Below are positions 53,299 through 56,111 of a stretch of 64,000 nt of DNA, piece after piece. A program made the position numbers and the translations under genes. The notes beneath the pieces were generated by a model, which was given only the letters and a program-made list of their open reading frames with translations, was not told the DNA's origin and searched no databases. This stretch comes from Escherichia phage Ec_Makalu_003: sequence record MN882349.1; one strand, given 5' to 3'. How positions within the stretch are numbered: the stretch's first letter is position 1; every line of letters begins with the position of its first letter.

Positions 53299-56111
53299 GC
53301 GTGATTGAAGGGATTAACGCAATGGCGACGGATGAACACCCGCTACATTTAGCGCACCCGTCTACACTAGAAACTAAAATTGATTCAAACGGCATTGAAT
53401 GGATTTTATCAAAGCATGATGATAAATGGTATCCTAAAAAGTTTTCTGACTATCTGAAATTAAACAGACCGCAGAAAATAAGGATGCAAAGTACAGATCC
53501 AACAAATTATAAGTTCTTTAAAGATAGTGACAATATTCGCACGCGGTATATGCGATTGAAGAACTTGCGAAGGGCGAATATTAAAACTCAGTATACCCCT
53601 GAAATGATCGCAGAGTGGAAACGATGCCGTAAAGATATTGTGTATTTTGCCGAAACCTATTGCGCAATTACACACATCGACTACGGTACAATCAAAGTAC
53701 AATTGCGTGATTATCAGAAAGATATGCTTAAGATCATGCACGAAAACCGCATGAGTGCGCATAAACTCAGTCGTCAGTTGGGTAAAGCACTTGATGTTAA
53801 TACGCCTATTCCTACCCGTGATGGGTTTAAACGTATGGGGGATGTTAAAGAAGGTGATCAGATCTATGCGCCTAATGGTCGTTTAGTTAATGTTGTATAT
53901 GCAACGGAATACCAGTATGATCGCAAGTGCTACGAGGTTGTTTTAGATACTGGCGCTAAGGTTGTTGCTGATGCCGATCATATCTGGACGGTATACGAGA
54001 AAGTCGGTAAAAATTATGTCAAGCGTGATATTACAACTCAGGAAATGATCGATAAGGGTATTACAACCAAAGATCAATCTCGTTTTAAAATCGCTAAGAC
54101 TAAACCGATTAAGGGAGAAGCTAAAGATCTTCCGGTTGATCCGTATACTTTAGGCTATTGGTTAGGTGATGGTCACACTGATGCAGCACGAATCACCCAC
54201 CATAAGGACGATAGCGGCATTCTGACGCATTTAAACGAGCAAGGATATCATACCTATACTTTTGCAGATAAACGCAATAGCAACGTTCTCACAACGTCTG
54301 CGCATGGTTTATGGGAAGGACTTAAAACCGCTGGCGTTGCTGGCAATAAGCATATCCCTATGGAATACCAATTCGCTGATATTGACCAGCGCACTGCCTT
54401 ACTGCAAGGTATTATGGATTCTGACGGATGCATTAATAAAAATGGTTATGCTGAAATTACATTAAAACTGAAACCGCTTATCGATGACATTTATTCGCTG
54501 TTGTGCGGATTGGGCTTTAAGCCGAAGATGAAAGAAAAAGTGGTAAAAGGTACTGTATATTACAGAATTTCATTTAATGCATATGCAGATAAGGGTGTGT
54601 GTCCGGTTCGAATGGAACGGAAGAAAGTAAACCTTATTAATTCTTGCGAAGATACAAGAACAGATTTTCTTTTTATTCGTGAAATTAATCCGGTTGAATC
54701 CCGTCCGGTAAAATGTATTCAGGTTGACAGTGAGGATAAGCTATATCTGTGTGGTCGTGAATTTATTCCAACTCACAATACTACCGCTGTAGCAATATTC
54801 CTTGCTCATTATGTATGTTTCAACAAAGACAAAGCTGTAGGTATTCTTGCACACAAAGGATCGATGGCGGTCGAGGTTCTAGAACGTACCAAACAAGCGA
54901 TAGAATTATTACCAGACTTCTTACAACCAGGAATAGTAGAATGGAACAAGAAATCAATTGTATTAGAAAACGGATCTAGTATCGGTGCATATGCATCATC
55001 ACCCGATGCCGTGCGCGGAAACTCCTTTAGTTTCATATACATAGATGAGGCAGCCTTCATTGGTTCGTGGAGTGATTGTTGGTTAGCGATCCAACCAGTA
55101 ATTTCTTCCGGTCGTGAATCTAAGCTGATCATGACCACGACTCCTAACGGACTTAATCACTTTTATGATATATGGCAATCGGCTATTGATGGTAAAAGCG
55201 GTTATGTACCTTATGAGGCGGTTTGGCATTCTGTTAAAGAACGTCTTTACAATAAAGCTGATATATTCGATGACGGTTATGAGTGGTCATCTCAGGCGAT
55301 CGCCGGATCTAGTCTTGAGCAATTCTTACAGGAACATAACGCTGAATTTTTCGGTAGTTCCGGTACTCTGATCAGGGCAACCACACTATCAAGATTATCC
55401 TTTATTGACGTTGTTAATGATAACGGGTTTTATCAGTTTGAGAAACCGAAAGAAGGTAGAAAATATGTTGCTACACTAGATTGCTCAGAGGGTCGAGGAC
55501 AGGACTATCATGCATTGCAAATCATTGATATTACTGAATTTCCTTATAAACAGGTTGCAGTATATCACAGCAATACTACGTCACATTTTATATTACCGGA
55601 TATTGTCTTTAAATATCTCATGATGTATAACGAATGTCCAGTTTATATCGAGCTAAATAGTACGGGTGTATCTATTGCTAAGTCTCTTGCGATGGATCTT
55701 GAATATGATAATATTATTTGCGACTCATTCATAGATCTAGGGATGAAACAATCCAAAAGGTCTAAAGCAATGGGATGTTCGGCACTAAAAGACTTAATAG
55801 AAAAAGATAAGCTGATCATTAATCATAAAGGAACTATTCAGGAGTTGCGCACATTCTCCGAGAAGGGGGTAAGCTGGGCGGCAGAAGAAGGTTTTCACGA
55901 TGATTTGGTCATGAGTCTGGTAATATTTGGTTGGTTAACAACTCAAGAAAAATTCGCCGAATATGCAGGAAAAGACGAAATGCGGATCGCCTCCGAAATA
56001 TTCCGAAAGGAATTAGATGAATTGGGGGAAGAATACGCGCCCGTGGTAATATATGACGGTGCAAACGGCATCGAAGAATATAGGCCGCGTGAAGGTCTAA
56101 CAATGATATAA
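53295..56111 (+). CDS. 17: terminase large subunit gp17, intein-containing precursor
   Basis: 938 aa; Walker A 'SRQLGK' is interrupted and resumes '[27 protein letters not shown]'; removing the 331-aa insert leaves 607 aa. Confidence 0.9.
53787..54779 (+). mobile_element. intein with LAGLIDADG homing-endonuclease domain in the terminase P-loop
   Basis: in-frame 993 nt; N-terminal block '[10 protein letters not shown]', LAGLIDADG motifs 'LGYWLGDGH' and '[13 protein letters not shown]', C-terminal '..FIPTHN' followed by extein Thr. Confidence 0.85.

Follow-up and report, generated by a model that had tools for sequence, protein, structure and literature searches.

The 64,000-nucleotide (nt) stretch of Escherichia phage Ec_Makalu_003 DNA analyzed here (sequence record MN882349.1; hereafter the window) carries a T4-type late block in the order gp13-gp14-gp15-gp16-gp17-gp18, and the large terminase gene gp17, lying between gp16 and gp18, is interrupted in frame by what is almost certainly a class 3 intein. 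The gp17 open reading frame (ORF; 53295..56111, + strand, stop codon included) encodes a precursor of 938 amino acids (aa) and 106.9 kDa. The insert, 993 nt at 53787..54779 on the same strand, supplies precursor residues 165-495, a 331-aa, 37.5-kDa segment in which a HINT splicing domain holds an inserted LAGLIDADG endonuclease. Upstream of it, the N-extein (53295..53786, +; aa 1-164) aligns with T4 gp17 as far as the Lys that ends its Walker A sequence SRQLGK; downstream, the C-extein (54780..56111, +; aa 496-938) opens with TTAVAIF and, according to Pfam and the T4 gp17 alignment, comprises the remaining ATPase domain and an RNase H-like nuclease domain. The insertion point therefore falls between the Lys and the Thr of the Walker A motif (SRQLGK/TT, the slash marking the junction here and below), and the insert itself ends in ...REFIPTHN. 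An initial annotation, made from the DNA sequence, had placed an intein with a LAGLIDADG endonuclease in a 938-aa gp17 with 331 extra residues at this site; its ORF and boundaries are exact to the base.

Pfam places Terminase_6N at aa 496-698 of the precursor, downstream of the insert only, and Terminase_6C at aa 727-898. Without the insert, gp17 is a 607-aa protein that aligns to T4 gp17 (PDB 3EZK, E 4.6e-281) with no gap at the junction, opposite which the T4 protein reads LSRQLGKTTVVAIFLAH; gp17 of the phages RB49, JSE, Phi1 and GEC-3S is likewise 607 aa long. This product has the hallmarks of a T4-type large terminase, namely an N-terminal ATPase, the Walker A sequence SRQLGKT and a C-terminal RNase H-like nuclease. 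Escherichia phage Ec_Makalu_002 (MN709127), which belongs to the RB49-like genus Krischvirus of the Straboviridae, shares ~99.9% identity with the window across gp17. In the window gp17 matched in one place only and a second, uninterrupted terminase gene was not found; in the near-identical Makalu_002 genome record gp17 was again matched at a single place, with no second terminase.

We then sought to assign the insert to an intein class. Among solved structures, phmmer ranks the class 3 DnaB inteins from M. chimaera (6RIX/6RIY) and M. smegmatis (DnaBi1, 6BS8) closest to it, with E values of 2.7e-18 to 3.2e-17. The alignment to the DnaB inteins covers both splicing halves, insert residues 1-69 and 297-331, and the middle matches PI-SceI. 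Class 3 inteins are defined by the lack of an N-terminal nucleophile, by a Trp at position 12 of block B, a Cys at position 4 of block F and a Thr at position 5 of block G (the WCT triplet), and by Ser or Thr at the +1 position (PMC2807308); in DnaBi1 the WCT residues have been named W67, C118 and T137 (PMC6195587). Ala1, Cys48, Asp62, His65, Trp67, Cys310, Thr329, His330 and Asn331 of the insert each fall on their DnaBi1 equivalents. Block A (53787..53816, +) begins with Ala1, without an N-terminal nucleophile, and matches ALALDTPLPT of DnaBi1 residue by residue. Block B, DADHIW (53970..53987, +), contains the DxxH pair (D62, H65) and W67 at block B position 12, and aligns with DAQHQW/DAAHQW of 6BS8/6RIX. 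Block F, VKCIQV (54708..54725, +), aligns with VRCVEV of the same two structures, and its Cys310 (position 4), opposite the catalytic Cys118, is the predicted initiating nucleophile. Block G, FIPTHN (54762..54779, +), provides Thr329 (position 5), the penultimate His330 and the terminal Asn331, and is followed by the first residue of the C-extein, Thr+1 (54780..54782, +), which is both the predicted second nucleophile and the Thr of the Walker A motif. The Ala at residue 1, the terminal His-Asn and the extein Thr noted in the initial annotation are all present in the translation, and the non-canonical splicing route that it had deduced from Ala1 can now be named as that of class 3.

These features extend across the protein family, for which we aligned the insert with 46 database relatives. 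None of the 47 sequences deviates at H65, W67, C310, T329 or N331. Members whose N-terminus is present begin with Ala, Gly or Gln and never with Cys, Ser or Thr; all 46 homologues have Ser or Thr at +1, and Lys occupies the -1 position wherever the N-terminal flank is present. The endonuclease residues are similarly maintained, with G123, W125, G129, D211 and G214 invariant and D128 and D213 conserved in at least 90%. Both LAGLIDADG motifs predicted in the initial annotation were found: the first, LGYWLGDGH (54150..54176, +; insert aa 122-130), carries the catalytic Asp128 and coincides with a helix at residues 119-128 of the structural model described below, and the second (54399..54428, +; insert aa 205-214), with catalytic Asp213, lies within a Pfam LAGLIDADG_3 match to insert aa 200-258 that scores 28.8 bits against a cut-off of 22.5.

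An AlphaFold model built on the family alignment (predicted local distance difference test, pLDDT, 96.6; predicted template modeling score, pTM, 0.93) points the same way. In a Foldseek search PI-SceI is the best whole-chain match (E 2.7e-19, query template modeling score TMq 0.77), followed by TliVMA, PhoVMA and PI-PfuI, while the class 3 DnaB inteins (6BS8/6RIX) span the splicing domain, with a target score TMt of ~0.8, and I-DmoI spans the endonuclease domain. The Foldseek probability is 1.00 for PI-SceI, TliVMA, PI-PfuI and 6BS8/6RIX. These matches to solved inteins identify a HINT fold in the predicted structure, and the endonuclease part shows the LAGLIDADG alpha-beta-beta-alpha-beta-beta-alpha fold in two repeats, resembling the endonuclease domain of PI-SceI and I-DmoI. 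A chance match is excluded by the phmmer E value of 2.7e-18, the LAGLIDADG_3 score above its cut-off and the Foldseek E value of 2.7e-19 taken together. The anatomy of the insert shows no departure from class 3 LAGLIDADG inteins, and we assign it to this class with high confidence. The G+C content of the insert (0.402) is that of the exteins (0.390 and 0.399) and of the window (0.409), so its composition carries no foreign-DNA signal, and we rejected such a signal as a mark of the insert.

From established class 3 chemistry, and by analogy with it, we infer the following course of splicing. The gp17 protein would be made as a 107-kDa precursor in which the Walker A Lys and Thr stand 331 residues apart, and because of this separation the ATPase could not form in the precursor. 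Because residue 1 is Ala, the reaction would start without an N-terminal acyl shift. Block F Cys310, aided by the DxxH pair and Trp67 of block B, would attack the Lys(-1)-Ala1 bond to yield a thioester-linked branched intermediate; the N-extein would be transferred onto the side chain of Thr+1; cyclization of Asn331 would free the 37.5-kDa intein; and an O-to-N shift would rebuild ...SRQLGK-TTAVAIF... in an active terminase of 69.5 kDa. We soundly infer that the packaging ATPase works only after splicing. The carriers of the intein are about ten independently isolated plaque-forming phages from several countries, and because the interrupted gene is the sole gp17 match in both the window and the Makalu_002 record, splicing must presumably work in these viable phages.

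We next compared gp17 across Krischvirus. Eleven phage records, from about ten phages, hold the full 2817-nt gene; the intein-plus phages are Makalu_002, kvi, ECD7, PTE-Eco09, FL15, FL04, AV108, MIZ4, MIZ5 and ELT3. In the intein-minus phages, which include RB49, JSE, Phi1, GEC-3S, W115, E26 and many others, the gene is 1824 nt long and the query matches in two pieces. The intein is thus present in ~11 of ~59 Krischvirus-level records. The insert is absent from GEC-3S itself, even though Makalu_002 is classed in the species Krischvirus gec3s. When eight intein-plus and eight intein-minus genes are aligned, the two groups differ by exactly 993 nt, between ...GG(G/T) AAA and ACT ACC... Both comparisons that the initial annotation had proposed, with intein-free gp17 and with known inteins, therefore bear it out: the first returns the 607-aa product and a clean 993-nt difference, and the second returns class 3 DnaB P-loop inteins as the closest solved relatives.

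Three variants of the intein, which we call the Makalu, ELT3 and ECD7 types, are ~95% identical at the DNA level. Between them the ratio of nonsynonymous to synonymous substitution rates (dN/dS) is 0.06-0.12 over the whole intein, 0.06-0.10 over the endonuclease part and 0 over the C-terminal splicing part, and no stop codon occurs in eight copies; selection on the intein is purifying. The ECD7-type intein is 99.5-100% identical across kvi, ECD7, FL15, FL04 and AV108. The exteins of these five phages belong to two lineages that are 95.6-95.7% identical to one another, and those of FL15, FL04 and AV108 are 98.4-99.2% identical to the intein-free alleles of RB49 and W115. The occurrence of near-identical inteins in gp17 backgrounds that are only ~96% identical suggests recent homing.

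Sequence differences close to the junction add to this picture. The Gly codon three nt upstream of the junction is GGT rather than GGG in 7/8 intein-plus genes and in 0/8 intein-minus genes (Fisher p = 0.0014, with relatedness not corrected for), and in the same 8 versus 8 comparison a T at extein position 549 occurs in intein-plus genes only. Further, FL15 has kvi-type bases at extein positions 531 and 549 and is otherwise 98.7% identical to RB49 and 95.7% to kvi. Near-identical inteins with short flanking tracts are the pattern expected of endonuclease-initiated gene conversion with short co-conversion tracts. Once freed, the two-motif LAGLIDADG endonuclease presumably cuts intein-free gp17 at GGG AAA/ACT ACC in mixed infections, and repair off the intein-bearing copy would move the intein, with a few flanking bases, into the cut allele.

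Together, these observations suggest that the single gp17 gene of this RB49-like coliphage houses a class 3 intein that is mobile, a statement to which, homing included, we give a probability of roughly 0.8; the endonuclease is probably active at present. Several points weigh on the other side. The Pfam Intein_splicing model scores 12.6 bits, below its cut-off of 35.8, and for this reason the assignment of the splicing domain rests on the PDB homologues and the predicted fold. There are few co-conversion markers, relatedness among the phages makes the Fisher test overstate independence, and precise deletion of the intein or ordinary recombination of gp17 segments could produce part of the mosaic.

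An unlikely alternative is that the intein splices while its endonuclease is inactive, so that the element is a passenger, inherited vertically or shuffled by recombination and not currently homing. Decayed endonucleases are present in many inteins, whole-segment recombination is common in T4-type phages, and the presence of the intein in only ~11 of ~59 records would suit such a history. Here, however, the two LAGLIDADG motifs are intact, catalytic Asp residues included, and the dN/dS of 0.06-0.10 across the endonuclease part speaks against inactivity. A passenger would also have to account for inteins 99.5-100% identical within ~96% identical exteins and for flank tracts so short and so closely linked to the intein, a mismatch that counts against it because double-strand-break repair yields just such a pattern.

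Beyond mobility, the residue Cys48 (53928..53930, +), the counterpart of DnaBi1 Cys48, raises a more speculative reading. In DnaBi1 this Cys forms a redox disulfide with the catalytic Cys and is required for splicing, yet it has been termed non-conserved (PMC6195587); in the family of endonuclease-containing class 3 inteins it is present in 44/46 aligned relatives. By analogy, the intein might act as a post-translational switch for packaging, with a reversible, redox-dependent stall through Cys48, and its endonuclease might give the phage an edge by marker exclusion, although we consider this combination improbable. Were it true, oxidative conditions could reversibly stall maturation of the terminase, and an intein-bearing phage would be favored over its intein-free Krischvirus relatives in mixed infections.

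Two further alternatives to a splicing class 3 intein fare worse. The insert might be a degenerate segment that does not splice and stays in the mature terminase, or the region might in fact be an intron or a gene for a free-standing endonuclease; T4-type phages do have group I introns, as well as free-standing genes for homing endonucleases, in the vicinity. We regard this as very improbable: the insert is in frame and stop-free in its eight copies, with all splicing residues conserved; an Rfam scan of positions 53000-56300 at E <= 1 matched no family, group I introns and other structured RNAs included; and no P-loop could form around a 331-aa domain that stayed between the Walker A Lys and Thr, although viable phages have this gp17 alone. 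A class 2 intein of the KlbA type, which shares Ala at residue 1 (PMC2807308) and whose +1 residue would attack the N-terminal amide directly, is just as improbable, as class 2 inteins lack the WCT triplet and have Cys at +1 whereas this intein has WCT and Thr+1 and its nearest solved relatives are class 3, and on the WCT triplet and Thr+1 we rejected that identity.

The class 3 intein of gp17 belongs to a large family. A protein search with the insert returned 225 relatives, the closest of which (69.5% identity) occupies the same SRQLGK/...HN/TTAVAI site in a more divergent T4-like terminase of a metagenome-assembled genome, whose exteins are 62-76% identical to those of the window gp17. The family favors sites of this kind: in full-length relatives (33-40% identity) the insertion follows the P-loop Lys in terminases of the Terminase_6N, lambda GpA and Terminase_1 types and in one unidentified ATPase, EGK in dCTP deaminases, and DWK in nucleases of the Cas4/RecB type. 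In a phage collection, 827 records contain relatives of the insert; outside Krischvirus the nearest is that of an Alishewanella phage (41%), followed by those in the large terminases (TerL) of mycobacteriophages LittleE and Omega (38%) and in Catera gp206 (33%). Class 3 inteins in mycobacteriophage TerL and RecB are known, as are the "classic" P-loop Lys/Thr insertion and switching between terminase and Cas4 via similar nucleotide-binding motifs (PMC5050341; bioRxiv 10.1101/2025.01.02.630785).

A different element occupies gp17 in two other Krischvirus phages, kaaroe (MN850574; 601-3712 of our locus L017) and vB_Eco_SAP (OZ034687; 8345-11453), where the gene is split into two overlapping ORFs. 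An insertion of ~1288 nt lies right after the Walker B motif and catalytic Glu (...FIYIDE/CVSGLTKVTL...), at another site than the window intein and equivalent to window position ~54055 on an extein-only map (gp17 Walker B, YIDE/A). In the N-terminal ORF a short intein N-piece is fused to ~300 aa that contain CxxC pairs as well as a nuclease domain resembling TnsA/endonuclease I (Pfam E 7e-9). The first ~106 aa of the C-terminal ORF end in ...VESHN/CAFI and match CatC, an engineered consensus atypical split intein (6DSL, E 1.3e-11). The +1 residue at this site is Cys, where the window and RB49 have Ala. By its sequence the element looks like a natural, atypically split intein of the AceL-TerL type, joined to a homing nuclease and present in a coliphage that can be cultivated.

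Just 5' of the terminase is a block that forms a hotspot of free-standing homing endonuclease genes, where kvi, ECD7 and Phi1 (loci L003, L004 and L012; 315-901) carry a segC-like gene between gp13 and gp14, and JSE and FL20 (loci L009 and L011; 904-1659) another endonuclease gene between gp14 and gp15. The window has neither. In MN709127 a coding sequence that shares its stop with the window gp13 ORF (50216-51148) is labeled "SegB homing endonuclease", which looks like a mis-annotation; other records give it as the gp13 neck protein. The two Makalu records also differ by a 2-nt offset in the gp14-gp15 intergenic region, with gp13 and gp14 coordinates shifted accordingly, and at the Leu-Ser codons just 5' of the P-loop. 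There the window (53768-53773) has CTC AGT, as in all other Krischvirus genes, and MN709127 (locus L001, 3474-3479) has CTA TCA, amounting to four clustered synonymous changes.

In the literature we found no description of an intein in gp17 of RB49-like or other T4-type coliphages, and a published remark holds that no inteins have been reported in coliphages (PMC11162368), which the gp17 intein contradicts. Papers from 2009-2016 had already described the class, its Ser/Thr at +1 and its tendency to occupy ATPase P-loops, those of terminases among them (PMC2807308, PMC5050341). The element is therefore an undescribed member of a well-characterized kind, and the databases already hold about ten such genomes. 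In three GenBank records (PQ306574, PP400778, PP358550) automatic annotation calls the terminase with its intein a "replicative DNA helicase (DnaB)", evidently owing to the likeness between this intein and those of DnaB, and one record notes "intein-containing".

The importance of the finding is modest: a class 3 intein whose homing endonuclease seems intact is available in a cultivable E. coli phage. With natural intein-free partners, among them RB49 and GEC-3S, whose target gene is 95-99% identical, it would be a convenient system for following intein homing, co-conversion and class 3 splicing in vivo, and simpler to work with than the mycobacterial systems used to date. The assignment also corrects the annotation of several GenBank records from DnaB to terminase and, for phage-therapy genomics, explains why some Krischvirus isolates have a 938-aa gp17.

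Among known systems, class 3 inteins occur in helicase-like proteins, bacteriophage terminase large subunits included, and mainly in ATPase P-loops (PMC2807308). The best-matching solved counterpart, mycobacterial DnaB intein 1 (6BS8; 6RIX/6RIY), likewise sits in an ATPase P-loop before a Ser/Thr, matches the window intein in numbering across residues 1-69 and shares the block F Cys and the T-H-N of block G. By contrast, it is a mini-intein of ~140 aa without an endonuclease, whereas the window intein keeps a full LAGLIDADG domain; its host is a bacterial helicase rather than a phage terminase, and the splicing halves are well below full identity. Alike in design are the inteins of actinobacteriophage TerL and Cas4/RecB proteins (LittleE, Omega, Catera gp206 and a Gordonia phage), which at 33-38% identity and 100% query coverage have the same architecture, WCT class, kind of host gene and insertion into a nucleotide-binding motif, the "classic" TerL1-a site being the P-loop Lys/Thr (PMC5050341). 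They reside in Terminase_1-type TerL of phages with Actinobacteria as hosts, and the window intein in the Terminase_6 gp17 of a Gram-negative, T4-type phage. The class 3 prototype, the DnaB intein of mycobacteriophage Bethlehem, sets the mechanism adopted above: it lacks an N-terminal nucleophile, has Thr+1 and the WCT triplet, cannot do without its block F Cys and passes through two branched intermediates (PMC2807308); compared here by its published description, it differs from the window intein in its extein. KlbA inteins, of class 2, begin with Ala1 as the window intein does, but lack WCT and have Cys+1. Finally, PI-SceI of yeast VMA1 and archaeal VMA/PI-PfuI share with the window intein the combination of a HINT domain and a two-motif LAGLIDADG endonuclease, but they are class 1 inteins (Cys1, Cys+1) at ~16% identity to it, and PI-SceI has an extra DNA-recognition region.

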